Shown piece after piece: positions 4,033 to 59,899 of a stretch of DNA of 64,000 nucleotides. The notes under the pieces are model-generated. The model did not search any database and was not told the DNA's origin. It saw only the letters and a list, made by a program, of their open reading frames with translations. Position numbers and translations under genes: made by a program. Origin of the DNA: Nannocystis bainbridge (GTDB taxonomy: Bacteria; Myxococcota_A; Polyangia; Nannocystales; Nannocystaceae); NCBI RefSeq assembly GCF_028368995.1, contig NZ_JAQNDL010000001.1:928001-992000 (forward strand). Direction: 5' to 3'. Positions within the stretch are counted from its first letter, which is position 1; the number at the start of each line of letters is the position of its first letter.

Positions 4033-4082
4033 GACATGCTCCCATGGACATGTCCTGATGCGCATGTCTCCTGGAACATGTC
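4033..4082. repeat. 14-bp-period GACATGTC array (4 units)
   Basis: CATG at 4035, 4049, 4063, 4077; convergent intergenic. Confidence 0.9.
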
Positions 4083-4111
4083 CTAAACGCGCGCGTCCCT
4101 GACCCCTGCGC

Positions 4112-5023
4112 TCACGGGGACCGGTCGAGCTTGTCGAGCTCCGCGAGCACGTCCCTCCGCAGGCCATCGCTGGCGGCCTGCCAGCGCTCCAGCAGCGCGG
4201 CCCGGCCCGGCTCGCCGCGCATCCCGTGAAGCGCGTAGGCCAGCGCCCACGTGATGCTCTTGCGATCGTCGCGCCACTTCAGCGAGCCCGCGATGCGCTC
4301 GATCGACGCCAGCGCCGCCGGCGGATCGAAGCGCCCCAGCTCCTTGACCCGGAACGCCGCGGCCCGGCGGTCGCCCCGCTTGAAGTCGTCGGCGAGGGCA
4401 CGCTCGACCAGGCCGAGCTTCACCGCGCGGAACTCCGCCTCCGTCACCGTCGGGCTGGTCGCCGGCGGCTTCGCCAGGAGGGCCGCGAGGCCGCCGTCCT
4501 CGAGCCGCGCGAACTCCTCGCCCGTCAGCCAATCGACGTCGTCGATCAGCAGCAGCGGCGTGTCGATCAGGCGCGCATCGGCCTCGGTGACGAGACGGAC
4601 CCGCATCGACGTGGCCGGGCGGCGCAGACCGGCGACGAACGCGTCGTCGTCGAGCGACGCCTCCAGCCAGTCCCAGAACGCCTCCTCGTCGCCGCCCGGG
4701 CCCATCGCCAAGGCGTCGGGGCGCGCCTCCATCGCGGTGAACCACAGCTCGAGCTCGCGGCCATGAAACGCCAGCAGCGCCGCGTCCGTCGGGCTCGTCC
4801 CGTCGAGGTAAGGGCCGAAATCACCGAGCGGGACCGGCGGCCTGGCTGTGCCCGAGCACGCCCACGCGAGCGCCCGGGCCTTGGCGTCCGCGAGCTTCTC
4901 CGCGAACACGACCGCCGGCTCGGCGGCGTTCGGCGCCGACGGCCGGACCACGCGGACCAGCAATGCGATGGCGCCCGGTGTGGCGGCGGGAAAGAAATAG
5001 AAGCGATCGTGGGCGATGCCCAT
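4112..5023 (-). CDS. Hypothetical protein (helical C-terminus)
   Basis: Long ORF with normal amino-acid composition; no family recognised. Confidence 0.65.
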   Translation of the reverse strand: MGIAHDRFYFFPAATPGAIALLVRVVRPSAPNAAEPAVVFAEKLADAKARALAWACSGTARPPVPLGDFGPYLDGTSPTDAALLAFHGRELELWFTAMEARPDALAMGPGGDEEAFWDWLEASLDDDAFVAGLRRPATSMRVRLVTEADARLIDTPLLLIDDVDWLTGEEFARLEDGGLAALLAKPPATSPTVTEAEFRAVKLGLVERALADDFKRGDRRAAAFRVKELGRFDPPAALASIERIAGSLKWRDDRKSITWALAYALHGMRGEPGRAALLERWQAASDGLRRDVLAELDKLDRSP

Positions 5024-5215
5024 GCGCGACGGTGCCACGACCTCGCCGGCCGCGACAAGCACGAGCGACGCAGCGCCGCTCGCCTCACGCGAGCGAAGCC
5101 GAGGGCTTCCCGGCCGCCAACATGCGGCCGGGAGCCCCTCGTCCGCGCTGCCACGAATGCGCGGACGCTCATGCCGGCGCCTGACGCGAACGTCAGGCCC
5201 GGCATCCAGGCGACA

Positions 5216-6637
5216 TCACGCCGCCCAGAGCGACGCCTTGCAGCGCTCGAACATCGCCGTGGCGATCGCCGGCCCTGGCACGCCGCACAGGCGCGACACC
5301 TCGGCGTCGGGCTCGGTGGTCGCCAGTGCGACCGTCATGCGCGCCAGCTCGGCGGCCTCGGCCGCGCGCACCCGCTCACGGGCCGCCTCGTCGAGCTGAC
5401 CGTAAAGCCAGGTCGCGACGTCCCACGCCAGCGCCGCGTGGTCCAGCTCGTCCTCGGCGATGGCGGCGAACAGCCGGCGCAGCGGCTCGTCCGCGGCCAC
5501 CGACGCCTGGTAGCGGGCCACCAGCGCGCCGAACGTCTCGCGCACGCAGCCCTCGACCGCGTTCTCGAGCGCCAGCGCCTCGAGCGAGCGCACCTCCGTC
5601 GGCACCTCGATGGCCGGCGAACCGCAGTCGGTCGCCGCCAGCCGCTCGCGCAGGCCCGCGAACCCGGCCGCGTGGCGGACCTCGTCGCGCGCCGCAGCCT
5701 CGGCGCGCTCGATCAGCGCCGCCGGGGCGCCGTGATGCGCCAGCTCGCAGGCCAGGCGCTCGAACGCCGGCACGCTGGCCGCCTCGAGGTGGTGCATCTC
5801 GTCGAGGTAGGCCACGAGCGCGCTGTCGGGGGTGCGCGGCGCCGGGCGGAAGCCCTCGGGGCGGCGGCCCGCGACCGCGCAGCCGTCGTCCGGCTTGGTA
5901 AGGTCGACCTCGGCCTGCGACGTCACCGCATCGCCCTTCACCGTCACCAGGTGGCCGTGGAATTGATTGAGGCACTCGTTGAAGTTCTTCTTCGCCAGCA
6001 GCTCGTAGCCGCCCTCGACCTCGCGCACCTTGCTGGCGTCGCACAGCGGCGCGTAGCCGTCGAGCGTGGTCAGGAACATCGCCTCGACCGGCGCGTCGAC
6101 GGTGCCGAAGAGCGCCACCAGCTCGGCGCGGGTGGTGATCGTCGTGACGTCGGCGCCAGACTGGGCCACCAGGTACGTCGAGGTCGGCATGCGCCCGGCC
6201 CCCGGCGGGAACAACGAGTTGGGCGAGGTCGCCTTGGCGAGCGCCTTGGTGCACGCCTTGGCGGTCTTCGGATCTTTGCAGCTGGCGCCGAAGCTGGCCA
6301 CCACCTGCGAGTTGAGCACCTTCCATTGCTCGCCCTTGTCCGGCTGCAGCTGCGAGACCCGCAGCTCGACGTAATCATAGGACTTGGCGAGCTTGGCCTC
6401 GCCGAAGCGGGCGACCAGCGCGGCCGGATCGCAGGTGTCGCCCGCGAACTCGGCGACCGCCGGCCCGGACGGCTGCGCCGGCGCGGGCGGCTCGGCGGGC
6501 TCGGCAGGCGGCTCGGCGGGCGTGCTGCTGTCGGTCGGCGCCGGCTCGGGCGGGATTGTCGAATTCTTCTCGCAGGCGGCCGAAGCCAGAGCGGCGACGA
6601 TCGACGCGGTGAACACGGAATGGAGGCGGTCTCGCAT
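5216..6637 (-). CDS. Lipoprotein with C-terminal ferritin-like di-iron domain
   Basis: Lipobox-like SAAC; EAASVPAF..DEVRHA..ENAVEGCVRET..DELDHA. Confidence 0.75.
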   Translation of the reverse strand: MRDRLHSVFTASIVAALASAACEKNSTIPPEPAPTDSSTPAEPPAEPAEPPAPAQPSGPAVAEFAGDTCDPAALVARFGEAKLAKSYDYVELRVSQLQPDKGEQWKVLNSQVVASFGASCKDPKTAKACTKALAKATSPNSLFPPGAGRMPTSTYLVAQSGADVTTITTRAELVALFGTVDAPVEAMFLTTLDGYAPLCDASKVREVEGGYELLAKKNFNECLNQFHGHLVTVKGDAVTSQAEVDLTKPDDGCAVAGRRPEGFRPAPRTPDSALVAYLDEMHHLEAASVPAFERLACELAHHGAPAALIERAEAAARDEVRHAAGFAGLRERLAATDCGSPAIEVPTEVRSLEALALENAVEGCVRETFGALVARYQASVAADEPLRRLFAAIAEDELDHAALAWDVATWLYGQLDEAARERVRAAEAAELARMTVALATTEPDAEVSRLCGVPGPAIATAMFERCKASLWAA

Positions 6638-9540: not shown

Positions 9541-9682
9541 GGCGGTCGCCGCCGCATTGTGCGGCCAGATCTCGCTCGAACGCCAATTCGTCGCCGACCG
9601 GGCCAGGCGCGCGCCTCTCGAGGCTTCGCGCGCCGGATCGCCCGCCGTCAGTCCGCGCGCCGCGCGAACCGCCGCCGGCTTT

Positions 9683-9718
9683 CACATGTCCCGAAGGACA
9701 GGTTCAAGCGAGCACGGG
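9683..9718. repeat. 14-bp-period array (3 units) at bioB stop
   Basis: cacatgtc-ccgaag-gacaggtt-caagcg-agcacg; cores 9685/9699/9713. Confidence 0.7.
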
Positions 9719-16681: not shown

Positions 16682-16987
16682 TCGGCGACGTGCGCTTGCC
16701 TGCGGCTCGCAGCCCGCGAGCGAGCGTCGACGACCCGTGACTCCAGGGGGATGTCGCTGCGATCGGTCGATCACAGCGACGTCGGCGCCGGCCGTGGCCG
16801 CGCACCGGACCCGAACGCCGCCCGAAAGTGCCACCGGCGGATCGACGCGCGCCGCCGCCGGCGCCCCCGCCCAGCGCCGCACAATCGCCGCGCCCCGCCT
16901 CCGCAAAGGTCGAACGTGGCGCCCGAGGCGCTGAGAGAGCCCCTGCTGGCGTCTCGATCGCGGCCTCGCTACTGTCGTGGCATACCC

Positions 16988-17188
16988 ATGGGCGATGTGA
17001 TCAATCTGAGTCGTTATCGCAAGGCCAAAGCCCGCGCCGAGAAGGAGCAGAAGGCCGAGGCCAACCGAGTCCGCCACGGACGCACGCGGACCGAGAAGCA
17101 GGCCGTGCAGGTCGAGCTCGAGCGCCAGACCGCCGAACTCGACGGCAAACGCCTCGACAGCGCCGACGACGGGAAACAAAGCCCCTGA
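16988..17188 (+). CDS. DUF4169 family small basic protein
   Basis: MGDVINLSRYRKAKAR..ANRVRHGRT. Confidence 0.85.
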   Translation: MGDVINLSRYRKAKARAEKEQKAEANRVRHGRTRTEKQAVQVELERQTAELDGKRLDSADDGKQSP

Positions 17189-17422
17189 CCGTCCGGACAT
17201 GTCCTGCGGGACAGGGTCTCCGTCGCCCGCGAGCCGCGGGACCTGTGACTGTTCGGACATGTCCCCAAAGACACCATCCCCCGTTCGGGGCCTATGACTC
17301 TTCGGACATGTCCTCCGGGCCATATCTGAATTCTCCGGCTCGCAGGACTCGCCACCCGGTCTCGGGCGCAGCCCCGCGAGCCGCCGCGCATGACCGCTGC
17401 GACATGTCCTGAAGGCCAGACC
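17182..17422. repeat. Four modular TGAC-N5-(G/C)GACATGTCC-N5-G(A/C)CA triplets
   Basis: Central CATG at 17198, 17258, 17307, 17403, each flanked at +/-14 bp by degenerate cores. Confidence 0.85.
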
Positions 17423-17480
17423 ACCCCTCTGACCGCCCGCGCCCGTTGACCGCCGGCGGCGCGCGTGGGATGGTCCGGCC

Positions 17481-18461
17481 GTGTCCGCGTGGCTCCACTG
17501 GCTCGCTGCGCTGCTGCTGGTGCTGCTGGCGCTGGCGGCAGCGGCCTGGTTCACCGCGCGGCCGTGGCTGGCCCCGCCGGCCGCCGCGCCCGAGCACATC
17601 GCCGGCACGTGGACCCGGGTCGAGACGTGGGCCGCCGAGACGCGCCAGGCGAGCGGGCCGATCGAGCCGCTGCACGCCGCGCTCGCGCCCCTCAAGCGGG
17701 CCGGCGCGACCGACGAGCCGTGGGACCCGACGCGGCCGCCCGAGCCGGCCACCGACCCCGCCGCGCAGCAGGCCCTCGCCGGGCTGATCGTATGGGCCGA
17801 CGGCGGCGGCCTCGGCGACGAGCTCTGCATCGTCGACCCGGCCGACTTCACGGCCGGACCGCCGCGCACGGTCGAGATGTTCCGCCTGGCCCGCCTCGCC
17901 CTCCGCCACGGCCGCGACGACACCGACCCCGCGTTCGCGGCGGCGCTGCGCCTCGGCGCCTACCTGCGCGGCCGCGGCCCGCTGCTCGCCGGCGCCGTCG
18001 GCTTCGCCATCGCCCGCGACGCCCTGCAGGTCGCCGAGGCCCGCAACCTGCCCGCCGGCCCGGCCTTCGTCGCGTTCGCCCCGCGCCGCGAGGAGGTCCT
18101 GCCGATCCTCGCCCGCGAGGCGGTCTGCTCGCTGCGCATGGCCGAGGCCGCGTTTCACAGCGGCGCGAGCGAGGCCGCCCCCGTCGAGCCCGGCGTGGTC
18201 GCCCGCTGGTCGAGCGCGTGGGTGGGCCCCGAGCGCGAGCTGGCGATGGCCCGCTGGTACCTCGGCGAGCGCGTGGCCGCGGCCGCGGCTGCCGGCGACG
18301 ACCTCGGCGCCGTGGCTGCCACGCAGACCCTGCCCGAACAGCCCGACGCCCTGCCCGCCAGCCTGCTGGTCCGCTCGCTGGCGGGCAGCGGCGCCTCGAC
18401 GGTGAGCGACATGCAGGCGACCCTGGCCGGCTACGCGGCCCGCCTCGGCCCGCCTCCCTGA
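17481..18461 (+). CDS. Membrane-anchored hypothetical protein
   Basis: N-terminal hydrophobic helix. Confidence 0.65.
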   Translation: MSAWLHWLAALLLVLLALAAAAWFTARPWLAPPAAAPEHIAGTWTRVETWAAETRQASGPIEPLHAALAPLKRAGATDEPWDPTRPPEPATDPAAQQALAGLIVWADGGGLGDELCIVDPADFTAGPPRTVEMFRLARLALRHGRDDTDPAFAAALRLGAYLRGRGPLLAGAVGFAIARDALQVAEARNLPAGPAFVAFAPRREEVLPILAREAVCSLRMAEAAFHSGASEAAPVEPGVVARWSSAWVGPERELAMARWYLGERVAAAAAAGDDLGAVAATQTLPEQPDALPASLLVRSLAGSGASTVSDMQATLAGYAARLGPPP

Positions 18462-18483
18462 CATCTGTTTTAAAGTTCTTATG

Positions 18484-18561
18484 GACATGCTCTTCAGAGC
18501 ATGTCCATATCGACATGCTCCTCAGAGCATGCTCTTCGTGCCATGTCCTCTCCGACATGCC
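18484..18561. repeat. 14-bp-period array (6 units)
   Basis: CATG at 18486, 18500, 18514, 18528, 18542, 18556; convergent intergenic. Confidence 0.95.
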
Positions 18562-18647
18562 CTGGCTGGGCCCCCCGGACCGTCACCCGCGCCACCGCGG
18601 AGGCCCGCCGCAGCTCGCCCTTCGGCGAGCCCTCGCGCCCTCCCCGC

Positions 18648-19379
18648 TCACCCGCGCGGGCGCACGGCCACGAACAGCGGCCCGAGCTCGGTCTCTCGCG
18701 CGACCGCCTTGAAGCCGGTCTCCTCGAGCATGTCGAGCCACTCGCGGCGGGCGAACAGCCCGTAGGTGTGGCGCTCGTGCTCGCACACCACCTCGTCGCC
18801 CTCGCGCAGCAGCAGCGCGAAGTCGACGGTGTAGGTCGAGTCCTCGGGGTTCGGGTCGACCGTCCACTCGAGGTACCGCAGCCCGCGCTCGCCGTCGTCG
18901 TCGCCGCCGTGGGCGGTCCCGGGCGCGAACGTCTCGCGGGTGCAGTCGGGCGCGAACACGGCCACCCCGCCGGGGCGCAGGTGGGCCAGCGCCGTGCGCA
19001 TGACCGCCCGCAGGGCCTCGGCGCTGGTCATGTACATCACCGCGTCGTGGACCAGCACCGCGTCGAAGCTGCGCCCGAGCCGGAGCGTGCGCATGTCGCC
19101 GACCAGGTGCTCGCACTCGGGGTTGATCGTGCGCGACAGCGCCAGCATCGACGGCGACAGGTCGACCAGCGTGGCCGCGACGTCGCGCTTGTAGTGCGAC
19201 GCCATGTTGCCGCCGCCGGCCCCGAGCTCGAGCAGACTCGCCAGCGGCCCCGAGCCGGACTCGCGGATGATGCGGACCAGCTCGGCGGCCTCGTCGACGT
19301 AGTCGGCCGGGGCCGTGAGCAAGTGGAACCACGCGGCGCGCCGCGTGTACAGCGGGGGCAGCTCGTCGTCGTCGTCCAT
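18648..19379 (-). CDS. Class I SAM-dependent methyltransferase
   Basis: LLELGAGGG, DLSPSML, GDMR, LRPGG. Confidence 0.9.
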   Translation of the reverse strand: MDDDDELPPLYTRRAAWFHLLTAPADYVDEAAELVRIIRESGSGPLASLLELGAGGGNMASHYKRDVAATLVDLSPSMLALSRTINPECEHLVGDMRTLRLGRSFDAVLVHDAVMYMTSAEALRAVMRTALAHLRPGGVAVFAPDCTRETFAPGTAHGGDDDGERGLRYLEWTVDPNPEDSTYTVDFALLLREGDEVVCEHERHTYGLFARREWLDMLEETGFKAVARETELGPLFVAVRPRG

Positions 19380-19413
19380 CACCACGGCGATCCCGAGCTT
19401 AGGCCCCCGCGCA

Positions 19414-22131
<2,718 letters not shown>

Positions 22132-22328
22132 GAGCGGGCGGAAGATATCAAATCGTCGCCGGCCATCTGCCGCGCGAAGGCGCGCGCTGGCTCACTTGTC
22201 CTCCAGGCCCCCCACGACCGCCGCCGGCTCGCCGGGCCCGTCCACGGCCGTCGCGGCCCGCGCGGGGCGAGCGTCCGGTCCGCGTGCGCCGCCGGCCGCA
22301 CGCCGGCCGGCGTGATAGCGTCGCTGCA

Positions 22329-22817
22329 ATGCATACATTCGACCTCCCCGCCGGCGCGGACAGGGCCGAGATCTACACCGAGCTGATCGCCACGGCAGAG
22401 GCGCTCGTCGCGGGCGAGCCCGACCTGGTGGCCAACCTGGCCAACCTCGCCGCGTGCCTCAAGCAGCTGCCGGGCGTGTCGTGGGCGGGCTTTTATCGCC
22501 GGGTCGGCGACGACCTGGTCCTCGGGCCATTTCAGGGCAAGCTCGCGTGCACCCGCATCGGCCCCGGCAAGGGCGTGTGCGGCACCGCGGCGGCCCGCCG
22601 CGAGGCGCTCGTGGTCGCCGACGTCGCCGCCTTCCCCGGCCACATCGCCTGCGACGCCGACTCGCGCAGCGAGGTCGTGGTGCCGATCGTCCGCGGCGCG
22701 CAGGTCCTCGGCGTCATCGACCTCGACAGCGACCGCCTCGACAACTTCGACGCTCGCGACGCCGAGCACCTGACGCGCCTCGCCGCGCTCGTCGCCGGCC
22801 TCGACTGGCCGGCTTGA
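22329..22817 (+). CDS. msrC: GAF protein, free methionine-(R)-sulfoxide reductase-like
   Basis: WAGFY, LGPFQGKLACTRI..GVCG, HIACDADSRSE. Confidence 0.85.
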   Translation: MHTFDLPAGADRAEIYTELIATAEALVAGEPDLVANLANLAACLKQLPGVSWAGFYRRVGDDLVLGPFQGKLACTRIGPGKGVCGTAAARREALVVADVAAFPGHIACDADSRSEVVVPIVRGAQVLGVIDLDSDRLDNFDARDAEHLTRLAALVAGLDWPA

Positions 22818-22857
22818 CCGCAGCCGCCCCGCACGCGACCCTGGAGCTCCTGTTCGC

Positions 22858-23694
22858 ATGATCATCGTCACGGGCACCAAGCGCTCCGGCACCTCGATGT
22901 GGATGCAGATCCTGATCGGCGCCGGCTTTACGTACATCGGCGAGCAGTTCAGCGGCCGCTGGGAGCAGACGATCAAGGCCGCCAACCCCGACGGCTTCTA
23001 CGAGTCGCACCTGCGCCGCGGCATCTACTTCAAGACCAACCCGCACCCCAAGACCGGCGCCTACCTGTTCCCCGAGCAGGTCCAACACCACGCGGTCAAG
23101 GTGTTCATCCCCGGCCTGGTCCGCAGCGACCGCGCCTTCATCACCAAGGTCATCGCCACCGTCCGCGAGTGGCGCGAGTACGAGTCGTCGATCCGCCGCC
23201 TCTACGCGATGGAGGACGACAACCGCCGCAAGGAGGGCAAGGACGACCTGGTGCCGCTGCGCATGCCGGGCGCGCTCGAGTGGTGGGCCGAGAACTTCGC
23301 CCTCGTCCGCGACATCGCCATCCGCCGCTACCCGGTCCACGTGCAGTCGTACGAGGGCCTGCTGGCCGATCCGCAGCGGGTCGTGCGCGACGTGCTCAAG
23401 TGGATCGGCAAGGGCGACGCCGACGCCGCGCTGGCCGCCGTCAAGCCCGAGCACCGCACGCAGCACCGGCCGCCGTCCGACAGCGTCGAGCCCGAGGTCG
23501 CCGCGGTGTTCGACGAGTTCTACGCCGCCCTGCACGCCGGCAAGGGCCTGACCGCGCCGATGCTCGAGAAGCTGAACCACACCAACGAGCTGGTGGCGCC
23601 GCGCATCGCCGGGTGGCAGCGCAAGCTCGGCGAGGACGCCCGCCGCCGCCGCGCGATCAAGGCCGAGGCCAAGGGCCTGCCGCCCGAGAGCTGA
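22858..23694 (+). CDS. Sulfotransferase-family protein
   Basis: IVTGTKRSGTSMW PAPS-binding loop; SYEGLLADP. Confidence 0.7.
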   Translation: MIIVTGTKRSGTSMWMQILIGAGFTYIGEQFSGRWEQTIKAANPDGFYESHLRRGIYFKTNPHPKTGAYLFPEQVQHHAVKVFIPGLVRSDRAFITKVIATVREWREYESSIRRLYAMEDDNRRKEGKDDLVPLRMPGALEWWAENFALVRDIAIRRYPVHVQSYEGLLADPQRVVRDVLKWIGKGDADAALAAVKPEHRTQHRPPSDSVEPEVAAVFDEFYAALHAGKGLTAPMLEKLNHTNELVAPRIAGWQRKLGEDARRRRAIKAEAKGLPPES

Positions 23695-23825
23695 GCGCCG
23701 CAGCGCGGCCGTTCGAGCGGTGCTCCTCGCCGACGACGTCCCTCGCTCACGGCCGTTCGACCCGTGCTCCTCGGCGCCCGCTACAATCACTCGCGGTCAC
23801 CGCGGAGCCCGGCTGAGCTCCTGTC

Positions 23826-25121: not shown

Positions 25122-25384
25122 CCTTTCGGACATCTCCGCCCATTCGCCGCGGCCCGCCTCGGGTCGGCGATCTCGCCGCGAGACGCCGCCAGGCCGGGGC
25201 CGTCGCCGGCCCTCTCGCGGGGTCGCCCGCGTCCGCCTGCGTGCAACAGCGATTTGTCGGGCCACGGGCGCCCGCCCGGGCGCCCGCGCCATTTCTCCGC
25301 CTGGCAGCGAGCATTCCGCGGTGATTGTGCCGGACCGGAGAACCGACGACGCTTGCCGCGAACCTCCTCCCTCTCCGGAGCCCC

Positions 25385-26200: not shown

Positions 26201-26245
26201 AGGCCCGCGCACGCCGGCCCGCCCGTCACGGCGCGCGGACCTCGT

Positions 26246-26323
26246 CGCATGGCCGTTGCGACATGCCCATGACGACATGTCCATCACGACATGTCCTCAT
26301 GCGCATGCCCCGAAGGACATGTC
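26246..26323. repeat. 14-bp-period array (6 units)
   Basis: CATG at 26248, 26262, 26276, 26290, 26304, 26318; convergent intergenic. Confidence 0.95.
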
Positions 26324-26324
26324 C

Positions 26325-27455: not shown

Positions 27456-27538
27456 CGCGCGACCATATCAGCGCGCCGACTTGCGCGGCAAGCGAGGCCC
27501 CTGGGGCCAGGCTACGCGCGGGCGCGCCACCACGGCGG

Positions 27539-28210: not shown

Positions 28211-28276
28211 GCCGGCAACCTAGCACGCGGTCGCCCGCTCGCAACCGCGCCCGCTGCATGCACCGGCTCGCGCAAT

Positions 28277-28908: not shown

Positions 28909-28909
28909 C

Positions 28910-36532: not shown

Positions 36533-36536
36533 TCGG

Positions 36537-36593
36537 CGCCTGTCCCTCCGGACATCTGCGTCACGCGGGCGCGTCTGTCCCTTCGGACAGCTC
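36537..36593. repeat. Two 14-bp-period pairs
   Basis: Cores 36539/36553 and 36574/36588; convergent intergenic. Confidence 0.7.
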
Positions 36594-36604
36594 GATCGGC
36601 CCGC

Positions 36605-37880: not shown

Positions 37881-37958
37881 GACATGTCCAAAGGGTCATG
37901 TCCTCGAGGACATGACCTCATCGACATGCCCTTCAGAGCATGTCCTGAAGTACACGAC
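37881..37958. repeat. 14-bp-period array (6 units)
   Basis: Cores 37883, 37897, 37911, 37925, 37939, 37953; begins right after the stop codon. Confidence 0.93.
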
Positions 37959-43685: not shown

Positions 43686-43865
43686 AGCATCACGAGAGAT
43701 CTCATCACCGCGGCGTGCGGCCGCGCGCCGCGCCGACGGCTGCCCCGCACGGCTCGGCGACGGCGGCGAAGCTCCGCCGCTCCGCGAACACCGCTCCGGC
43801 GACCCGCCGCACTCGCCCTCGGCCCGCGCGGCGCCGCATCACGGCCCGTGTGGCACCATCCGACG

Positions 43866-45521
43866 ATGTCCCGCCGCCTCGTCGACCTCGCCCGCGATCT
43901 CGGCATCGACCCCGAGAACCGCGCCTACGTCCCCTATGGCCACGACTTCGCCAAGATCGACACCGTCGCCGCCGGCGAGGGCTCGGCGCACGGCAACCTC
44001 GTGGTCGTCTCCGCCGTCACCCCGACGCCGCTCGGCGAGGGCAAGACCGTCACCTCGATCTCGCTCGGCATGGGCCTGTCGCGGATCGGCGAGCCCGCGC
44101 TCGCGTGCCTGCGTCAGCCCTCGCTCGGCCCGGTGTTCGGGGCCAAGGGCGGCGGCGCCGGCGGCGGCAAGGCGCAGGTCGTGCCCGCCGATCGCATCAA
44201 CCTCGGCGGCACCGGCGACGGCCAGGCCGTCGGCGCCGCGCACAACCTGCTCGCCGCCATGCTCGACGCGCATCTGCGCCACGGCAACCCGCTCAAGGTC
44301 GACCCGGCACGCATCGCCTTCTCGCGGGTCACTCCCGTCAACGACGGCAGCCTGCGCAAGGTCATCACCGGCCTGGGCGGCCCGCTCAACGGCGTCCCGC
44401 GCGAGTCCTTCTTCGAGATCAACGAGGCCAGCGAGGTCATGGCGATCCTCGCCCTCGCCCGCGATCGCGGCGACCTCCGCAAGCGCCTCGGCAACATCGT
44501 CCTCGGGCCCGACCAGGGCGGCGCGCCGGTGCGGGCCGAGCAGCTCGGCGCGGCCGGGGCCATGAGCGTGCTCCTGCGCGACGCCCTCTACCCCACCCTC
44601 GCGCGCACCAGCGAGGGCACGCCCGTGCTGCTGCACGCCGGCCCGTTCGCCAACATCGCCCACGGCAACAGCAGCCTGATCGCCACCCGCTGGGCCCTCA
44701 CGCGCTCGCCATGGGTCGTCACCGAGTGCGGCTTCGGCAGCGACCTCGGACTCGAGAAGTTCGTCCACATCAAAGCCCGCCTCGGCAACCTGCGGCCCGC
44801 CTGCGTCGTCGTCGTCTGCACCGTGCGCGCGCTCAAGGTCCACGCCGGCCTGGCCAAGGCCGTGCTCGGCAAGCCGCTCGACCAGGCCGTGCTCACCGAG
44901 GACGTGAGCGCCGTCGAGAAGGGCGCCGCCAACCTGCGGCATCACCTGCGGATCGCCACCAATTTCGGCCCGCCGGTGGTCGTCGCGCTCAACCGCTTCC
45001 CGACCGACACGGACGCCGAGATCGCGGTCGTCGAGGGCATCGCCCGCGAGTTCGGGGCCGGCTTCGCCGTGCACACCGGCTTCGCCGACGGCGGCGCCGG
45101 GGCCGAGGATCTGGCGCGCGCCGTCGTCAAGGCCGCCCGCCCCACCGACCTGCGCTACCAGTACGAAGGCACAGGTCCGCTCGCCGCCCGGCTCGAGAGC
45201 CTGGCCAAAAACGTCTACGGCGCCACCGGCATCGAGCTGGCCCCCGCCGCCCGCACGCGCCTGGCCCAGCTCGAGAAGTGGGGCCTCGGCGAGCTGCAGC
45301 TGTGCGTCGCCAAGACCCACCTCGCCACCACCCACGACCCGGCCGACGGCGGCCTGCCGAAGCCGTTCGTCCTGCCGGTGCGCGACATCCTGGTCCGCGC
45401 CGGCGCCGGCTTCGCCACCGTGCTGACCGGCGAGCTCACCACCTTGCCGGCCCTGGGCGCCCGCCCCAACGCCGTCGACATGGACCTCGACCCCGCCACC
45501 GGCGCCGCCATCGGACTCTAG
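43866..45521 (+). CDS. fhs: Formate-tetrahydrofolate ligase (divergent)
   Basis: TPTPLGEGKT, LRQPSLGP, HAGPFANIAHG, GFGSDLGLEKF. Confidence 0.9.
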   Translation: MSRRLVDLARDLGIDPENRAYVPYGHDFAKIDTVAAGEGSAHGNLVVVSAVTPTPLGEGKTVTSISLGMGLSRIGEPALACLRQPSLGPVFGAKGGGAGGGKAQVVPADRINLGGTGDGQAVGAAHNLLAAMLDAHLRHGNPLKVDPARIAFSRVTPVNDGSLRKVITGLGGPLNGVPRESFFEINEASEVMAILALARDRGDLRKRLGNIVLGPDQGGAPVRAEQLGAAGAMSVLLRDALYPTLARTSEGTPVLLHAGPFANIAHGNSSLIATRWALTRSPWVVTECGFGSDLGLEKFVHIKARLGNLRPACVVVVCTVRALKVHAGLAKAVLGKPLDQAVLTEDVSAVEKGAANLRHHLRIATNFGPPVVVALNRFPTDTDAEIAVVEGIAREFGAGFAVHTGFADGGAGAEDLARAVVKAARPTDLRYQYEGTGPLAARLESLAKNVYGATGIELAPAARTRLAQLEKWGLGELQLCVAKTHLATTHDPADGGLPKPFVLPVRDILVRAGAGFATVLTGELTTLPALGARPNAVDMDLDPATGAAIGL

Positions 45522-45598
45522 ACCTGTCCCTAAGGGCATGCTCTCCAGGGCATGCCCTCAGCGCCATGTTCGCGGGGACATGTCCCCGCGGACAGGCG
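45521..45598. repeat. 14-bp-period array (6 units)
   Basis: Cores 45523, 45537, 45551, 45565, 45579, 45593; fills almost the whole convergent gap. Confidence 0.93.
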
Positions 45599-45601: not shown

Positions 45602-46624
45602 TCAGCCCTCGTGGATCGACAGCACGAACTTGCCGGCCTGCCCGCCGACCCCGTCGACCACCACGATCACCGGCTGGCCGCCGAGCAGGAACACCGCCGT
45701 CGCCGGCAGCAGCCCGTTGGAGTCGTCGTTGCAGGCCATCTCGCTGCCCTGGCACGACCCGTCGAGCAGGTACAGCACCGGGTCGAAGTCGGCGTCGATC
45801 ACCTCGAACACGAACACCCCGTCGAACGGCGCCGTCCACTGCGCCTCGATCTCCGGCGACTCGAAGCCGTTGCAGCTGCCGCCGCGCACGTTGGTCGCCC
45901 CGGCCGTCTGGCCGTCGATCGTCAGCGGCACGAACGGGTCGAACACCGTATCGGGGCACTCGTCGACCACCGGCACCTGGGTGATGTTGTAGACCACGTC
46001 GGCGCTGCTCTGGCCGAAGCTGTCGATCACCAGCGTCACCGTCTGGCCGACGACCAGGTCGACCTCGACCTTCGAGGTCAGGCTGCCGCCGCCGTCGTCG
46101 TCGCAGGCCAGCTCGTTGCCGAAGCAGACCCCGTCGAGCACGGCGATGAGCGAGTCGAAGCTCGAGCCCATGGTGTCGAACTGGAACCGACCCGTGACCG
46201 GCGCCGTCCACACCACCTCGAGATCGGTCCCGCCGACCCCGCCGCAGCTGAGCGAGAAGTCATCGCCCTTGGCCTGCAGCGAGTCGACCTGATGGATCGG
46301 CACCGTCGCCGGCAGGACGATGCTGCCGCACTCGTTCGGCCCCTCGGTCGTCACCGTGGCGGTGATCGTGGGATCGCTCGTGATCGTCGTCTCGGTGTCC
46401 GACGTGATCGTCGGCTGGACCGTCGTCGGGCTGACCGTCGTCGGGCTGACCGTCGTCGGGCTCAGCGTCGTCGGGCTCAGCGTCGGCCCGGCGGTCTCCG
46501 ATTCGGTCGACGGGTCGAACGTATCGCCGTCGCTCTCGGTGCCGGGGAAGAAGCCGAACCGGTGTTCGTTGCAACCCGCGAGCACGAGCCCGCAGGTCAG
46601 GACGGAACGGAGGCCGCGTCGCAT
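45602..46624 (-). CDS. Lipoprotein with two PPC-like domains and PTT(L/V)S repeats
   Basis: LAGC lipobox; 15-bp tandem repeats at ~46421-46480; WTAP..ACDDD/ACNDD. Confidence 0.75.
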   Translation of the reverse strand: MRRGLRSVLTCGLVLAGCNEHRFGFFPGTESDGDTFDPSTESETAGPTLSPTTLSPTTVSPTTVSPTTVQPTITSDTETTITSDPTITATVTTEGPNECGSIVLPATVPIHQVDSLQAKGDDFSLSCGGVGGTDLEVVWTAPVTGRFQFDTMGSSFDSLIAVLDGVCFGNELACDDDGGGSLTSKVEVDLVVGQTVTLVIDSFGQSSADVVYNITQVPVVDECPDTVFDPFVPLTIDGQTAGATNVRGGSCNGFESPEIEAQWTAPFDGVFVFEVIDADFDPVLYLLDGSCQGSEMACNDDSNGLLPATAVFLLGGQPVIVVVDGVGGQAGKFVLSIHEG

Positions 46625-46682
46625 AAGCCAGGGATACGCCGACGATACCACAGCCGCCGGCGCGTCCCAAGCCAGCGGCCGG

Positions 46683-53490: not shown

Positions 53491-53568
53491 CATATGCCCT
53501 CGAAGACATGTTTGATGGGAAATGTCCTCAAGAACATTTTCCATGAGACATGTCTTTAAATACATATC
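53491..53568. repeat. 14-bp-period array (6 units, AT-rich)
   Basis: Cores 53493, 53507, 53521, 53535, 53549, 53563. Confidence 0.88.
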
Positions 53569-53792: not shown

Positions 53793-54926
53793 TTGTCTCG
53801 AATCCTTGCCTGCAGTCCTTTCTTGTTCCTCTTCACCGTCGCCTGCGGCGACCTCGAGAAGCTCTCGTCGACCGAGGGCGACGACCCCGGCAGCTCGTCC
53901 ACCACCGGCGCCAGCGACGGCTCCGCCACCACCGAGCCGGCCAGCCCCACCGGCGAAGCGACCGACAGCTCGACCACCGCCTCCACCCCCGATCCACTCA
54001 CCACGGGCGACCCCGTCACCACCGAGCCCGATCCGACCGACGGCCTCACCACCACCACCACCACCACCACCACCACCGATACCTCGACCACCACCGACAT
54101 CGGCACCTCGACCACCGACGACACCTCGACCACCGGCCTCGACCCGGTCGGTCCCGAGCTGCCCGTGCCGACCGCCGACTGTCCCGACATCGTCGACGGC
54201 GACGTCAGCTTCCACCCCGCCGGCCTCGACAGCCCGCGCGACGTGCGGATCTGGGTCGACCTCGACACCGCCCAGCAGGCCGACGGGCCGGTCGTGTTCT
54301 ACTGGCACGGCACGGGCGGCTCACCGCAGGAGGCGCTCACCGGCATCGGCGAGCTGGGCATCCAGGAGATCCTCGACCTCGGCGGCATCGTCATCGCGCC
54401 CACGCACGACCCGATGGCCGGCATCTTCCCGTGGTGGCTCGTGCTCAGCGAGACCGACGATGACCTGCAGCTCGCCGACGAGGTCCTCGCCTGCGCCCGC
54501 GAGCAGATCGGCGTCGACGCCAGCCGGATCTACGCCGCTGGTTTCAGCGCCGGCGGCCTCAACACCGCGCAGATGAGCATCCGTCGCTCGGGCTACATCG
54601 CCGCCGCCGCCCCCTACTCGGGCGGCCTCATCTTCGGCGCCAAGCCGCCATTCCAGGACCCCGACAACAAATTCTCCGCCATGATCTTCCACGGCGGCCC
54701 CGGCGACGTCGTCGTCGTCGGCTTCGAGCAGGCCAGCAAGGACTACGCCGCCTACCTCGACGACAACGACGAATTCAACTTCCTCTGCAACCACGGCGGC
54801 GGCCACTCGATCCCCGACGCCCAGGACAGCGTCATGCAGTTCTTCTTCGACCACCCCTACGGCGTCGGCGCCTCCCCGTACGCCCAGGGCCTGCCGGGCG
54901 ACTTCCCCGGCTACTGCGACCTCTGA
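53793..54926 (+). CDS. Thr-rich lipoprotein alpha/beta hydrolase (esterase)
   Basis: VAC lipobox; WHGTG, GFSAGG, HGG..D, GGH. Confidence 0.8.
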   Translation: MSRILACSPFLFLFTVACGDLEKLSSTEGDDPGSSSTTGASDGSATTEPASPTGEATDSSTTASTPDPLTTGDPVTTEPDPTDGLTTTTTTTTTTDTSTTTDIGTSTTDDTSTTGLDPVGPELPVPTADCPDIVDGDVSFHPAGLDSPRDVRIWVDLDTAQQADGPVVFYWHGTGGSPQEALTGIGELGIQEILDLGGIVIAPTHDPMAGIFPWWLVLSETDDDLQLADEVLACAREQIGVDASRIYAAGFSAGGLNTAQMSIRRSGYIAAAAPYSGGLIFGAKPPFQDPDNKFSAMIFHGGPGDVVVVGFEQASKDYAAYLDDNDEFNFLCNHGGGHSIPDAQDSVMQFFFDHPYGVGASPYAQGLPGDFPGYCDL

Positions 54927-55843: not shown

Positions 55844-56776
55844 TCAGAAGGCGTACAGGAGGTTCTGGTTCCAGCCGTCGAGGCCGATGGAGATCTGGCC
55901 GCTCTGCGTCTGGTACCCCGCCTGATACGACGCCTTGAGATCGGCCAGGCTGAACTCGAGCGACACGGTCGGCGCCGCGTCGCAGAGGTCGCCGTTGGCG
56001 TCGTGCGAGATCTCGAGGCCGACCTGGACCGGCTCCGACTCGGCGAACAGCCCGTCCCAGCACAGCGCGAAGTCGTGTTCAGCGCAGCCGCCGCCGTACT
56101 GGATCTCGACCTTCAGCGCATCGCCGACGATCGCCGCGTCCAGCACCTGGTACGGATCGGCCGGCGCCGGATCGGAGCACGCCAGCGCCCCCTCGATCGT
56201 GCACTCGCTGCTGCAGCCGTCGCCGCTCACCGTGTTGCTGTCGTCGCAGACCTCGTCGCCCTCGACCACCCCGTCGCCGCACACGCTCGCGCTGGTCGTC
56301 GACGACCCCTCGGTCTCGTTCGGCTCGCCGTCCGTGCCGGTGCCCTCGGTCTCCTCGCAACCGATCTCGGTGCAGGCCCAGTCCCCGCCATAGCACGTGC
56401 ACGTGTTGCAGCCGTCCTCGGCGGGCTTCGTCTCGCCCTCTTCGCACTCGAGGCCCTCGCACGCGATCTCGGTGCAGGCCCAGCCGCCCTCGGTGCACGT
56501 GCACGTGTTGCAGCCGTCTTGCGCCGGCTTCGTCTCGCCGTCTTCGCAGCCATCGTCGCAAGCCTTCAGCGTGCAGCTCCAGTCGCCGCCCTCGCACGTG
56601 CACGTGTTGCAGCCATCCTCGGACGGCTTGGTCTCGCCGTTCTGGCAGGTCAGGTTGCCGGACGTCTCGTCGCCGATCTGCTTGGGGTCGCAGGCCGCGG
56701 CCGAGGCGCCGAGCAGCGCCCCGACGAGCAGCAGGTTGCGGTGGATGTTCAGGGCATTAAGGAAAGTGAAGCGCAT
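55844..56776 (-). CDS. Lipoprotein with three pacifastin-pattern domains and a myxobacterial Cys-rich repeat
   Basis: AAAC lipobox; C-x11-CNTCTC-x2-G-x3-CT-x3-C x3; CGDG..EVCDD.N..GDGCS..C. Confidence 0.8.
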   Translation of the reverse strand: MRFTFLNALNIHRNLLLVGALLGASAAACDPKQIGDETSGNLTCQNGETKPSEDGCNTCTCEGGDWSCTLKACDDGCEDGETKPAQDGCNTCTCTEGGWACTEIACEGLECEEGETKPAEDGCNTCTCYGGDWACTEIGCEETEGTGTDGEPNETEGSSTTSASVCGDGVVEGDEVCDDSNTVSGDGCSSECTIEGALACSDPAPADPYQVLDAAIVGDALKVEIQYGGGCAEHDFALCWDGLFAESEPVQVGLEISHDANGDLCDAAPTVSLEFSLADLKASYQAGYQTQSGQISIGLDGWNQNLLYAF

Positions 56777-56899
56777 GGTGGTCGTTCCTGAGATGGGTGC
56801 TTCGTAGTTGTCCGCCCTGCCGCCCATCTGTGTCCGCCCTCGCGATTTTTTTCGAAGCGTTCGCGGCGCCATGGCCCCGGCGCTTCCGCACCCCCTGCA

Positions 56900-57760
56900 T
56901 CACGGCTCGGCGCAGCCCAGGCGCACCCGCTCGGCCAGCGCCGACCCGCCGTGCGCGCGCAGGAACACCTGCGCCGCCGCCCGGCCCTCCGCCGCGCGAT
57001 CGCCCGCGCACAGCGCCAGCGCCCGCAGGGCGTCGTGCTCCTCACGCAGCGCCCCGCGCGGGAACTGCTGCGCGTATGCATGCAGCAGCGTCAGCGCCTC
57101 CGCGGCCCGCGAGCCCTGGATCGCCGCCTGCGCTCGCCCCAGCAGCTCCGCCTCCTGCGCCAGCGAGCTCGCCTCCACCGCGCTCGCCTCGCTCTCCGCC
57201 GCGCTCGCCTCATGCGAGCCCGTCGGCGAGCTCCGCCGCTCCGATGCGCGCGCCTCGCCGCTGCCGCGACCGACTCGCAGCGAATGATCTGTCCCCTTGA
57301 ACATGTCCCTCACGACATGCTCTCTGGCGCTATCATCATCCCTCGACGAAGTCGCGCTCGGTTGTTCCTCACGGTTCTCTGTCTCTCGGACCATGTCCCC
57401 CGAGACAGGCTCGCTCGCGCCCGCCCGCACCGGCTCGCTCGTCGCCGCCTGCCGCTCCGCGTACGCCGCCGCCTCGCCGCCCTGGCGGGACCCGACCAGC
57501 GGCCCCAGCACCCCTGCGCGCGAGGCCAGTAGCACCGCCGCCGCTGCCGCGACCACCACCCCGGCCCACACCCATTCCGACACGCCCCTTCGGACCTGCC
57601 CTTTCGGCCATGTCCCTTCGGCCCGGGTGCTCGCCGCCACGCGGGCCCACACCCGCGCCTCGGTCGCGGCCGGCAGCTCCTCCGCGACGCGGAACGCCCG
57701 CAACGCCGCTGCTGCCTGCGGATCGAGCTCCCCCTCGCGCCCCCGTGGTCCCGTCGTCAT
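56900..57760 (-). CDS. Putative anti-sigma factor (TM helix + C-terminal TPR-like region)
   Basis: ATGA overlap with ECF sigma; FPRGALREE..ALC. Confidence 0.75.
   Translation of the reverse strand: MTTGPRGREGELDPQAAAALRAFRVAEELPAATEARVWARVAASTRAEGTWPKGQVRRGVSEWVWAGVVVAAAAAVLLASRAGVLGPLVGSRQGGEAAAYAERQAATSEPVRAGASEPVSGDMVRETENREEQPSATSSRDDDSAREHVVRDMFKGTDHSLRVGRGSGEARASERRSSPTGSHEASAAESEASAVEASSLAQEAELLGRAQAAIQGSRAAEALTLLHAYAQQFPRGALREEHDALRALALCAGDRAAEGRAAAQVFLRAHGGSALAERVRLGCAEP
57286..57628. repeat. Three intragenic 14-bp-period arrays in the anti-sigma gene
   Basis: Cores 57288/57302/57316; 57378/57392/57406; 57581/57595/57609/57623. Confidence 0.8.
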
Positions 57761-58299: not shown

Positions 58300-58391
58300 C
58301 CCGCGTGATTGTCCAGCTTCTCGGGTTTCTGTCACCCCACCCCTCGTGCGCGCTGGCGCACCCACCCGCCCCCGGGGCATCCTCCTCTTCG

Positions 58392-59828
58392 ATGCACCCC
58401 GCGCGCGTCCTCCCCGTGGTCGTCCTGCTCTCGGCCCACTGCGCCGACGAGCCCACCAGCGGCTTCTCGGCCACCGTCCCCGCGGACACCACCGCGCCGA
58501 TCACCAACCCCCAGAGCAGCTTCCCCGACGCCACCGACACCGCCGACGCCACGACCACCACGACCGGCAGCCCGACGACCACCACCGGCACCACCACCGA
58601 CGCGCTCACCACCACCGAAGCTGCGTCGACCTCCTCGACGACGACCACGACGACCTCGACCACCGGCGACCCCTCGACCACCACCGCCACCGGGATCTGC
58701 GGCGACGGCGTCGTCGACGACGGCGAGGTCTGCGACGACGGCGACGCCGACGACGACGCCTGCCTCGGCGACTGTACTTCGGGACAGGCGCTGCTCGTGC
58801 TCGCCGGCGCCGGCCCGACCCCCGCCCTGGCCGCCCGCTACGTGCCCGGCCCCGGCTGGACCGTCGCCGAGCTCGACGTCGACCTCGGCGAGACCGCCCT
58901 CGTCGCCACCCACCTCGGCGCGCTCGGCGTCGGTCGCCGCGCCGCCGCCGACGCCGACGCGGAGAACGAGCTGACCTTCACGACATGGTCCAAGGGACAG
59001 CCCGAGACCTGGACCTCCGCCCAGCCGGTCGGCGCGTTCGGCTTCGCCATCGACGGCCCCGGCCTGGCCGCGGTCGGCGAGACCGTCACGCTCGCCTTCC
59101 TCGGCACCGACTTCAAGCACTACACCGCCCTGTGGACCGACGGCACCTGGGCCACGTTCGGCCCGCTGCCGGCCGGCATGCCGCAGGTCCAGGCCTTCGG
59201 CCCCAGCGCCGCCGTGCTCGCCTCGGGCCCCGCCGAGACCTACGCCGCCTACGCCGGCGACAACGGCAAGATCTTCTACAACTTCAAGGCCTCGCCGGGC
59301 GGCGCCTGGCAGTCGTCGATGCAGGCCCCGCCGCCGCTCGTCGTCAGCGGCCTCACCCCTGCCGCCCTCGTCGACGCCGACGGCGACCTGCTGATCGCCT
59401 ACGTGCGCGCGACCGACGGCAAGATCGCCGTCGTCAAGCTGCTCACCCCGCAGAACGCCTGGACCGTCGAGGCCATCGTCGACGACCTCGCCATCACCGC
59501 CAGCGAGCTCGCCTTCGTCGCCGTTGACGACGGCGCCTATTACATCGCCTGGAAGGGCTACGACGACGACGGCGTGTACGCCGTGCGCGGCCTCGACCAC
59601 GACGACTGGGGCGCCCCCTTCACCGCCGCCGAACCTGCGACGACCACCCTCCCGCCGGCCCTCGCGCGCGGGGCCGCCGGCGCCGACGCCGAGCTCGTCT
59701 ACGTCACCGGCGGCGCGCTGCAGCACGTCCGCCTCGTCGGCGACAGCCCCAGCCAGCCCAGCGTCGTCCCGGGCGCCACCGGCCTCAAGGCCCGCCCCGC
59801 CGCCGTGCGCGTGCAGATCGGCGGCTGA
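58392..59828 (+). CDS. Thr-rich lipoprotein with Cys-rich repeat and beta-rich C-terminal domain
   Basis: Signal peptide with Cys; CGDGVVDDGEVCDDG. Confidence 0.75.
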   Translation: MHPARVLPVVVLLSAHCADEPTSGFSATVPADTTAPITNPQSSFPDATDTADATTTTTGSPTTTTGTTTDALTTTEAASTSSTTTTTTSTTGDPSTTTATGICGDGVVDDGEVCDDGDADDDACLGDCTSGQALLVLAGAGPTPALAARYVPGPGWTVAELDVDLGETALVATHLGALGVGRRAAADADAENELTFTTWSKGQPETWTSAQPVGAFGFAIDGPGLAAVGETVTLAFLGTDFKHYTALWTDGTWATFGPLPAGMPQVQAFGPSAAVLASGPAETYAAYAGDNGKIFYNFKASPGGAWQSSMQAPPPLVVSGLTPAALVDADGDLLIAYVRATDGKIAVVKLLTPQNAWTVEAIVDDLAITASELAFVAVDDGAYYIAWKGYDDDGVYAVRGLDHDDWGAPFTAAEPATTTLPPALARGAAGADAELVYVTGGALQHVRLVGDSPSQPSVVPGATGLKARPAAVRVQIGG

Positions 59829-59835
59829 CTCAAAG

Positions 59836-59899
59836 AGTATGTCCATTCGGACATGTTCTTCACAACATGTCGATGAAGCTATGTCTCCAAGGACATAGA
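59836..59899. repeat. 14-bp-period array (5 units)
   Basis: Cores 59838, 59852, 59866, 59880, 59894; convergent intergenic. Confidence 0.9.

Follow-up and report, generated by a model that had tools for sequence, protein, structure and literature searches.

For decades it has been asked why the genomes of certain lineages are full of a single palindrome, as with the repetitive extragenic palindromes (REPs) and HIP1, and how transcription units are ended or insulated in very G+C-rich bacteria without obvious intrinsic terminators is poorly understood. In ribbon-helix-helix lattices such as the MetJ met-boxes, the omega heptads and the ParG/ParR centromeres, boxes are bound by neighbour-contacting dimers that coat the DNA, and each lattice known so far occupies a single locus, at a promoter or a plasmid centromere. 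DNA uptake sequences (DUS/USS) are genus-level "dialect" motifs that occur in genes and, as inverted pairs, in terminators. For REPs, the proposed roles are termination, mRNA stability, supercoiling and protein binding (PMC3733652 and PMC2817692), and a GTAG (or CGTC) tetranucleotide at the palindrome end is given as the characteristic tag (PMC3733652). HIP1 (GCGATCGC) of cyanobacteria is presented in PMC5861425 as a palindrome over-represented 15- to 300-fold and conserved inside open reading frames (ORFs) as well as between them, and its function may be chromosomal (PMC5861425 and PMC4390886). Here we describe a family of short dyads from Nannocystis bainbridge, found singly or tiled into arrays with a 14-bp period, starting from a stretch of 64,000 nucleotides (the window) that corresponds to C1:928001-992000 of assembly G000, whose five contigs add up to 11.05 Mb at 71.5% G+C.

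The repeating unit is a 14-bp dyad

In the window, there are 253 CATG tetranucleotides, and pairs of them stand exactly 14, 28 and 42 bp apart 34, 19 and 16 times, respectively; in 200 dinucleotide shuffles of the window, 14-bp pairs averaged 0.55 (standard deviation 0.76, maximum 4). Among the 39,940 CATG sites of the whole genome, we counted 3736 pairs at 14 bp, 2073 at 28 bp, 1586 at 42 bp, 751 at 56 bp and 383 at 70 bp, over a background of ~70-120, or of ~260-300 where the distance is a multiple of 3; neither 13 bp (72) nor 15 bp (262) stands out. An earlier reading of the window, made from its letters alone (the sequence-only reading), had proposed a dispersed chromosomal element and predicted genome-wide peaks at 14, 28 and 42 bp; all three are present, together with those at 56 and 70 bp, and the element, with thousands of motif copies, is real. 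Under a strict definition (at least three CATG in register), the genome holds 954 arrays. Scored with a position weight matrix (PWM), it holds 2416 arrays of at least two units and 1081 of at least three, and the reversed genome gives 5.

CATG had been taken as the core of a repeated octamer. The repeating unit is instead a 14-bp dyad, TGYCC-N4-GGRCA, and CATG is the joint at which GGRCA of one dyad meets TGYCC of the next. Beyond the left end of an array, the following unit in register keeps its inward half only (T.48, G.67, C.57, C.58), as does the unit beyond the right end (G.55, G.55, C.72, A.51), while the outward halves are at background level; arrays are therefore whole numbers of dyads, and their ends have the form CTGYCC...GGRCAG. 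In addition, 888 perfect dyads stand in the genome without a flanking neighbour. These single copies carry no CATG, which occurs only where dyads abut, and their consensus widens to ACCTGTCC-N4-GGACAGGT, a palindrome of about 20 bp.

The spacing of the two arms is strict: TGYCC and GGRCA are found with N4 between them 2828 times, with N0-N3 or N5-N9 23-93 times, and a reversed control motif is found 29 times. The half-site alone occurs 23,769 times against 14,333 expected under a Markov model (1.66-fold), and 5,033 of these copies are already within dyads. In 2073 unbiased middle units (the middle of CATG-N24-CATG), the core is CATG in 1670 (81%), followed by CCTG (70), CAGG (62), CATT (58), AATG (41), and CATA and TATG (22 each); the transition products CACG (7) and CGTG (4) are scarce when set against CCTG and CAGG. 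The variant cores listed in the sequence-only reading hold in part only, with CCTG, CAGG and TATG present and CACG rare. Conservation in these middle units reaches 92-94% at the CA/TG positions and 50-74% consensus at the arm positions. Spacers, on the other hand, are diverse: the commonest makes up 3.7% of 3726, and they are 52.6% A+T, against a genome with the G+C content given above. The lack of any 13- or 15-bp excess, N4 as the sole enriched arm spacing and near-random spacers uphold the earlier argument that selection acts on geometry, and a phased protein-binding lattice fits them better than plain slippage does.

An eight-unit array outside the window (C3:1054303-1054411) has CAGG in all its cores (GGACAGGYCC) and three successive identical units, as if a variant unit had recently been amplified in tandem. 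Together with runs of identical 14-mers in other arrays, it shows that tandem duplication is active.

Placement behind stop codons and range across genomes

Gene calls were crude, based on G+C content at third codon positions (GC3) plus the first start codon of each ORF, and gave 6758 genes. By these calls, an array is present in 53% of the gaps between convergent genes (608 of 1147), in 22% of those between tandem genes (592 of 2653) and in 11% of those between divergent genes (105 of 959). As a caller-free check, the coding strand was read from the GC3 phase in array flanks. For the 1081 arrays of at least three units, flanks were classed as '+-' in 357 cases, '+0' in 209, '0-' in 146, '++' in 106, '--' in 100, '00' in 90, '0+' in 38, '-0' in 29 and '-+' in 6; for 5000 random positions, '+-' was found 184 times and '-+' 114 times.

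Measured from the gene end, the first strong unit lies at a median of 16 nt past the stop codon and within 0-40 nt in 62% of 1228 gene-end/array pairs, with distances peaking where the stop codon itself sits in register. In a metagene profile with 20-bp bins, the last bin ahead of the stop contains 32 dyad centres and the first two behind it contain 310 and 409, and the density immediately past the stop codon is 30-40-fold that inside genes. A dyad lies at most 80 nt past the stop in 967 of the 6758 called genes (5 of 6758 for a control motif) and at most 80 nt upstream of the called start in 172 genes. At tRNA genes, an array follows within 150 bp in 5 of 102 and precedes in 1 of 102.

Dyads are also found inside genes: 254 of the 888 perfect singles (~29%) fall within continuous GC3-supported ORFs; random positions, judged in the same way, do so in 761 of 1500 cases. 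When in-ORF dyads were compared with 1.2 Mb of a second Nannocystis genome (G007), 24 could be aligned; 20 of these alignments are 83-96% identical, 18 of the 20 keep the dyad and none has an internal indel, and the other four are 75-78% identical, gapped and probably not orthologous. Arrays placed "in genes" by the crude caller (708 of 2416 wholly inside a called gene) were judged unreliable because of over-extended 5' ends and shadow ORFs, and were set aside.

Each of the five contigs carries arrays, and a 250-kb bin holds 0-43 of them, the zero being a short bin at a contig end. No ori/ter or segregation pattern and no origin-centred clustering is evident in these per-bin counts, which were not compared with replication coordinates. 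Density is uneven, at ~24-37 per 250 kb in the full-length bins of C3 and C4 and 4-40 (mostly 4-21) on C2, possibly a matter of core versus accessory regions.

Genomes other than that of the window organism were surveyed as pattern counts plus samples of 0.2-1.2 Mb. In G000, a pattern of four CATG is found 869 times; five other Nannocystis genomes, of 12-13 Mb, have it 409-527 times each, and five smaller Nannocystis genomes have it 1-13 times, with 13 in one of 9.1 Mb and 40 contigs (G009). It is absent from the 30 genomes of other genera examined. Of 400 further genomes sampled from the phylum, 15 contained 1-5 matches, and those listed are for the most part plain tandem repeats of one 7- or 14-bp unit. 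The exact dyad, TGTCCNNNNGGACA, is found 114-2090 times in 11 of 11 Nannocystis genomes (1987 in G000, against 3 for the reversed control, and 959 in G009), and the array-poor members of the genus still hold 114-959 copies. Two genomes of sister genera are moderately enriched, with 87 (control 10; G011) and 161 (control 1; G013), as single copies in mixed contexts, and the other 28 genomes searched have 0-8; over the whole survey, controls gave 0-10. By these counts, the dyad motif may be older than the genus Nannocystis.

In 200 kb of G009, dyads reach 95 per Mb and are nearly all single, of the form cTGTCC-N4-GGACAg. For six gaps, a counterpart of the G000 gap was identified in G009, and two of the six are clearly intergenic. 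One orthologous gap measures 37 bp in G009 and holds one unit-like sequence, against 131 bp in G000; another measures 52 bp and holds a single dyad, CTGTCC-CAAA-GGTCAG, two bases past the TGA, against 241 bp in G000. From these comparisons, a single dyad looks ancestral to the genus and the tandem arrays look like an amplification in one subclade.

Conservation of the arrays themselves was followed in one species pair, G000 and G007, with small samples (76 gaps, 12 ungapped pairs and the 20 in-gene sites). Among the 76 matched array-bearing gaps, a chain of at least three units is kept in 50, two units in 14 and fewer in 12, and chain length is equal in only 24. In the 12 ungapped pairs, two of which are out of register and lower the array identities, identity per unit position is.84.86.68.79.83 for the left arm,.60.51.57.57 for the spacer and.75.71.68.90.73 for the right arm, making spacers the least conserved class (0.51-0.60, against 0.68-0.90 for arm positions). 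Arrays thus look to be kept in place while unit number and spacers turn over. The G007 gap orthologous to that behind window gene 17481-18461 contains a ~49-bp-period repeat of at least 5 copies with one dyad junction per copy, which shows that dyads can ride along in larger repeat units.

In the window, arrays were listed by PWM as at least two units each scoring at least 6 bits. By this rule there are 19 arrays, of which 11 have three units or more, and 5 dyads stand isolated; the sequence-only reading had put the number at about 30 clusters, which is above this tally, and the six arrays it gave as examples were all recovered in place when coordinates were checked against the sequence. The features are as follows, in window positions, with no strand assigned to arrays and dyads.

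4032-4083: array of 4 strong units between the convergent genes 2567-3991(+) and 4112-5062(-)
9682-9705: array of 2 units, terminating in GGACAGG
17200-17213: isolated dyad TGTCC-TGCG-GGACA, closely behind the end of ORF 16751-17188(+)
17386-17409: array of 2 units
18483-18562: array of 6 units with six CATG (CATG span 18486-18559), starting 22 nt past the stop of 17481-18461(+); the convergent partner is a methyltransferase-domain gene, 18648-19385(-)
26259-26324: array of 5 strong units, with six CATG over 26248-26321, occupying the gap between the MscS-like gene 25325-26200(+) and 26325-27455(-)
28290-28313: array of 2 units
30244-30295: array of 4 strong units, with degenerate units out to about 30219-30303
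30440-30453: isolated dyad ccTGTCC-CTTC-GGACAgc
31579-31630: array of 4 units downstream of 30625-31503(+)
32651-32674: array of 2 units
33550-33573: array of 2 units
33619-33642: array of 2 units
36541-36554: isolated dyad ccTGTCC-CTCC-GGACAtc, right behind the stop of 35291-36532(+)
36576-36589: isolated dyad tcTGTCC-CTTC-GGACAgc
36670-36683: isolated dyad caTGTCC-TCGA-GGACAtt
37880-37945: array of 5 units, of which units 2-3 make a perfect 24-bp palindrome
45520-45585: array of 5 strong units, the first core CCTG and the other four CATG, followed by a CAGG half-site; it opens with ACCTGTCC 2 nt past the TAG of the formate-tetrahydrofolate ligase gene (43848-45521,+) and closes with GGACAGG, and the convergent partner gene is 45602-46651(-)
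53504-53555: array of 4 units, adjoining the P450 gene 51698-53509(-)
54933-54984: array of 4 units, starting ~6 nt past the stop of 53793-54926(+)
57299-57322: array of 2 units
57592-57615: array of 2 units with cores CCTG and CATG
59835-59872: array of 3 units, starting 6 nt past the stop of 58305-59828(+)
60761-60784: array of 2 units, beyond the range covered by the sequence-only reading

The whole anatomy of an array is visible in one of these examples, 45520-45585. Other tandem repeats in the window are a long imperfect CAC/ACC-rich repeat at 2683-2964 (periods 15, 27 and 54 bp) within ORF 2567-3991(+), which has a pectinacetylesterase domain and whose repeat probably codes for a low-complexity Thr/Pro/His-rich linker; two copies of a 48-bp repeat at 37213-37323; a 15-bp repeat at 46408-46485 (5.2 copies, 93% identity) within ORF 45602-46651(-); and a 102-bp repeat at 56353-56638 (2.9 copies, 78% identity) within ORF 55844-56872(-), a repeated protein segment without an assigned family.

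Candidate readings of the dyad arrays

The dyad profile is symmetric in 3012 units oriented by a single upstream gene, and post-stop singles are likewise symmetric in the sense orientation; since this holds under one-way transcription, the symmetry is not a by-product of transcription from both sides. An orientation bias at flank positions -2/+15 was also considered and is not tied to transcription direction. In the same 3012 units, the arms pair as often as expected if they varied independently (observed/expected 0.393/0.399, 0.559/0.539 and 0.546/0.533). Tested pair by pair in single and internal dyads, the ratio of observed to expected is 1.00-1.08 for pairs 2-13 to 5-10, and the ratio of 1.25 for the outermost pair, 1-14, in singles was put down to chance GC-rich matches. 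Compensatory change between arms is essentially absent, whether looked for in adjacent 10-mers, in oriented dyad arms or in the pair-by-pair tests.

We favour, with a confidence that stops a little short of even, a tiled binding lattice for a putative dimeric DNA-binding protein at transcription-unit ends. The sequence data establish the unit, its geometry, placement, taxonomic range and conservation and the lack of covariation, with fixed spacing, symmetry and the lack of covariation as the DNA-side signatures examined for such a lattice; reading by a protein, cooperative binding of neighbouring copies and the role of the lattice at gene ends are inferred. The rigid N4 and 14-bp step, the consensus-graded conservation and the direction-independent symmetry all point to a homodimeric protein rather than a generic hairpin, and so do the absent compensatory change, the A+T-rich free centres, the whole-dyad array ends and the conserved in-gene copies. 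An RNA hairpin would accept 3- or 5-nt loops. Units with unrelated spacers abut exactly, and no neighbours stand out of phase, which suggests joint action of adjacent copies, and the density step at the stop codon with the 53% occupancy of convergent gaps places the function at transcription-unit ends.

As a mechanism, a symmetric homodimeric protein would recognise double-stranded DNA at the dyad. Within a single Nannocystis subclade, lone post-stop sites would have been amplified into head-to-tail tiles, whose GGRCA/TGYCC junction gives the appearance of "CATG every 14 bp". Successive dimers would then stand 14 bp apart on a phased lattice, each rotated by ~120 degrees relative to the last, with three units making four helical turns. 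Such a lattice would mark or insulate transcription-unit ends, mostly between convergent genes, where it would block read-through both ways or handle the supercoils that collide there. A more specific version, in which a small dimeric protein peculiar to Nannocystis coats the tiles as a helical lattice and so forms a bidirectional terminator, insulator or supercoil barrier, with the thousands of single sites as the ancestral low-occupancy form, is possible but rather doubtful. If true, a bacterial chromosome would here carry "punctuation" encoded in its sequence, of a type so far undescribed, at transcription-unit 3' ends that include more than half of convergent gene pairs.

Several points weigh against the protein lattice. 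Adjacent units are complementary at 7 or 8 of 8 positions in 5.1% of pairs, against 1.8% of random ones. Taken as RNA, arrays would fold strongly: over 120 arrays z averages -4.35 and is below -2 in 88%, where random segments average -0.25. Any chain of one palindrome must fold in this way. There is a small T/G excess on the sense strand (at pair 3-12, T-G 541 vs C-A 381), which could come from tolerance of G-U pairs or from mutational skew, and the post-stop position is shared with terminators and REPs. The lack of covariation carries less weight than it seems to, because a consensus palindrome stays structured without covarying. Slippage adds to array growth, given that some arrays with identical 14-mers are plainly recent tandem duplications, and given the excess of identical adjacent spacers (4.3% of neighbouring spacers, vs 1.1% of random pairs). 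The arm identity of 0.68-0.90 between G000 and G007 is not clearly above that of other intergenic DNA (.795; coding edges.919). Finally, tiling dimers at 14 bp is tight and needs a small or DNA-wrapping protein, and no candidate for the binding protein emerged, the promoter-side arrays that were followed as a lead giving none. There were 73 such "promoter-side" arrays, and most lie behind an upstream gene by the gene calls.

A chain of consensus palindromes closely behind stops would also be expected of a REP/BIME-like stem-loop, a selfish or semi-domesticated repeat whose transcript hairpins would end or stabilise mRNAs from either direction, as bidirectional terminators lacking a U-tract or as protectors of the 3' UTR, and we regard this as a possibility of distinctly lower probability than an even one. 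The strong enrichment in convergent gaps suits it, as does the way array starts cluster 0-20 nt past stops, with the median of 16 nt and the 62% within 0-40 nt given above. It is also consistent with the strong predicted folding (mean z and 88% as above), the modest excess of perfectly complementary neighbours, the slight G/T richness of the sense strand, the arrays behind 5 of 102 tRNA genes and the restriction to one lineage, as in REP families. In window 17000-36999, hairpin-plus-T-run terminators number 4, against 4.6 in shuffled sequence, and none is at an array, which implies that something else ends transcripts there. Against a stem-loop, the dyad lacks a trailing T-run: at 186 post-stop dyads, T is about as frequent in the 12 nt that follow as it is ahead of the dyad. 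A stem-loop would, moreover, be expected neither to hold its loop strictly at 4 nt and its step strictly at 14 bp nor to show no compensatory change in any arm pair, and 254 of 888 perfect singles lie inside ORFs, where they are conserved. The Y1/RAYT transposase of REPs (PF01797) has 0 matches in the genome (90.5% complete), against matches in 6 of 14 control genomes. The flanks of the 888 perfect singles show A/G-C/G-C on the left and G-G/C-T on the right only, with neither a GTAG nor a CGTC tag, and spacers whose commonest form is 3.7% of 3726 are too diverse for copy-and-paste spread. The REP-like family raised in the sequence-only reading therefore stands as regards location at gene 3' ends and falls short on the transposase, the tag and the copies inside ORFs.

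Sigma-70-like promoters in window 17000-36999 number 1, against 0.6 in shuffled sequence, standard consensus scans being uninformative in this genome. Public metagenome and metatranscriptome runs matched 5-14% of sampled words, and the contigs they gave come from relatives, mostly 90-99% alike. One contig covers the formate-tetrahydrofolate ligase gene and its neighbour and fails to align across the array between them, from which no inference was drawn. An RNA contig halts about 8 nt before the array at 37880; contigs cannot show transcript ends, and no inference was drawn here either.

Molecular drive without any function of the arrays appears unlikely. It would mean over-representation like that of HIP1 or of uptake sequences, through methyltransferase or repair bias or through a dimeric uptake or recombination receptor, with arrays as slippage products that last only where DNA is most permissive, closely behind stops. 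Such a drive, together with slippage, could account for much of the abundance of the dyad, a hyper-abundant lineage-specific motif (TGTCCNNNNGGACA, 114-2090 times in 11 of 11 genomes of the genus) that is present and conserved both within and between ORFs, as PMC5861425 reports for HIP1. That arrays are derived in one subclade (four CATG 409-869 times in six genomes of 11-13 Mb, against 13 in G009) points the same way, as do the two short orthologous gaps of G009, one with a single dyad where G000 has an array, and the runs of identical 14-mers, which are active slippage. Drive alone leaves unexplained the exact-register abutment, without 13- or 15-bp excess, of units with unrelated spacers, the 30-40-fold density step at the stop codon and the retention of at least two in-register units in 64 of 76 orthologous gaps. 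By itself, the half-site shows little enrichment (1.66-fold), in contrast to known uptake sequences. In favour of drive, the genome has many N6/N4 methyltransferase homologues (PF01555, 12 profile matches; PF02384, 10), and no C5 cytosine methylase was detected in it (PF00145, 0 matches). No methyltransferase is tied to the motif; the lead was dropped, the N6/N4 homologues being too many.

A lattice of CATG sites read by a SeqA-like methylation-sensing or segregation protein, as the sequence-only reading suggested, has in its favour that CATG is the best-conserved tetranucleotide in arrays (81% of unbiased middle units), but is highly improbable, as CATG arises solely where two dyads abut, array ends and the 888 singles read CTGTCC...GGACAG without it, array-poor members of the genus keep hundreds of such dyads, and arrays on all contigs track gene ends without origin-centred clustering.

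Whichever reading applies, the dyad family is an unusually clean case, with a rigid 14-bp unit, single and tandem states within one genus, a sharp anchor at the stop codon and about half of convergent gaps covered, and the existence of array-rich and array-poor Nannocystis species makes the question directly testable. The arrays lend themselves as candidate insulator or terminator parts, and in Nannocystis, a genus known for natural products, they are a source of assembly breaks and of 14-bp markers resembling variable-number tandem repeats.

Comparison with described families

The motif had been put forward as undescribed, and the searches agree. Rfam gave no match at gathering thresholds for the whole window, and viral contigs scanned for three GRCATGYC at 14-bp steps contained 0 such stretches. 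No description of GGACATGTCC in myxobacteria was found in the literature, nor was the dyad in any of six spellings (supplementary files lay outside the search). Titles and abstracts contained no relevant report of Nannocystis intergenic or palindromic repeats, and for myxobacterial REPs only unrelated work. CRISPR was rejected, since its repeats measure 23-50 bp and alternate with unique spacers about as long, whereas the arrays have a period of 14 bp with 4-bp spacers.

Intrinsic terminators share with the arrays a position directly downstream of stops, enrichment between convergent genes and strong predicted RNA structure; the dyads differ in having no U-tract, in a consensus shared across loci and in copies within ORFs. 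The ribbon-helix-helix lattices resemble them in their short conserved boxes at fixed phase, with unconstrained and often A+T-rich bases between, but the dyad family comprises about 2400 chromosomal loci at gene 3' ends. Like DUS/USS, the dyad is a genus-level motif found in genes and behind them; unlike these, its half-site alone is scarcely enriched, its arm spacing is fixed and it forms tandem arrays.

With REPs and BIMEs, the family has much in common: short consensus palindromes in hundreds to thousands of copies, behind gene 3' ends, in regularly spaced clusters and specific to a genus or species. Stem-loop-capable imperfect palindromes clustered at regular spacing behind genes, which are the mark of a REP, are also what the dyad arrays present. 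The dyad departs from both in its unit of 14-20 bp, its free 4-bp centre, its full symmetry, its abutment without linker, its strict 14-bp step and its lack of stem covariation, and from REPs in a genome without RAYT, the missing GTAG/CGTC tag and the ~29% of perfect singles in ORFs.

HIP1 (PMC5861425 and PMC4390886) is likewise a lineage-specific palindrome in orders-of-magnitude excess, kept in and between ORFs, for which selection has been inferred. Over-representation of this type is found for the dyad (exact form 1987 vs 3 for the reversed control, Y/R form 2828 vs 29), and so is conservation, in small samples, at 18 of 20 sites in ORFs and in 64 of 76 orthologous gaps with at least two in-register units. 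HIP1 differs in being a contiguous 8-mer with orphan methyltransferases, no stop-codon anchor and no known phased arrays, whereas the dyad is bipartite (5-N4-5), stop-anchored and tiled. The dyad family appears to belong with the lineage-specific hyper-abundant palindromes, among which the architecture of phased, tiled dyads at gene ends seems to be new.

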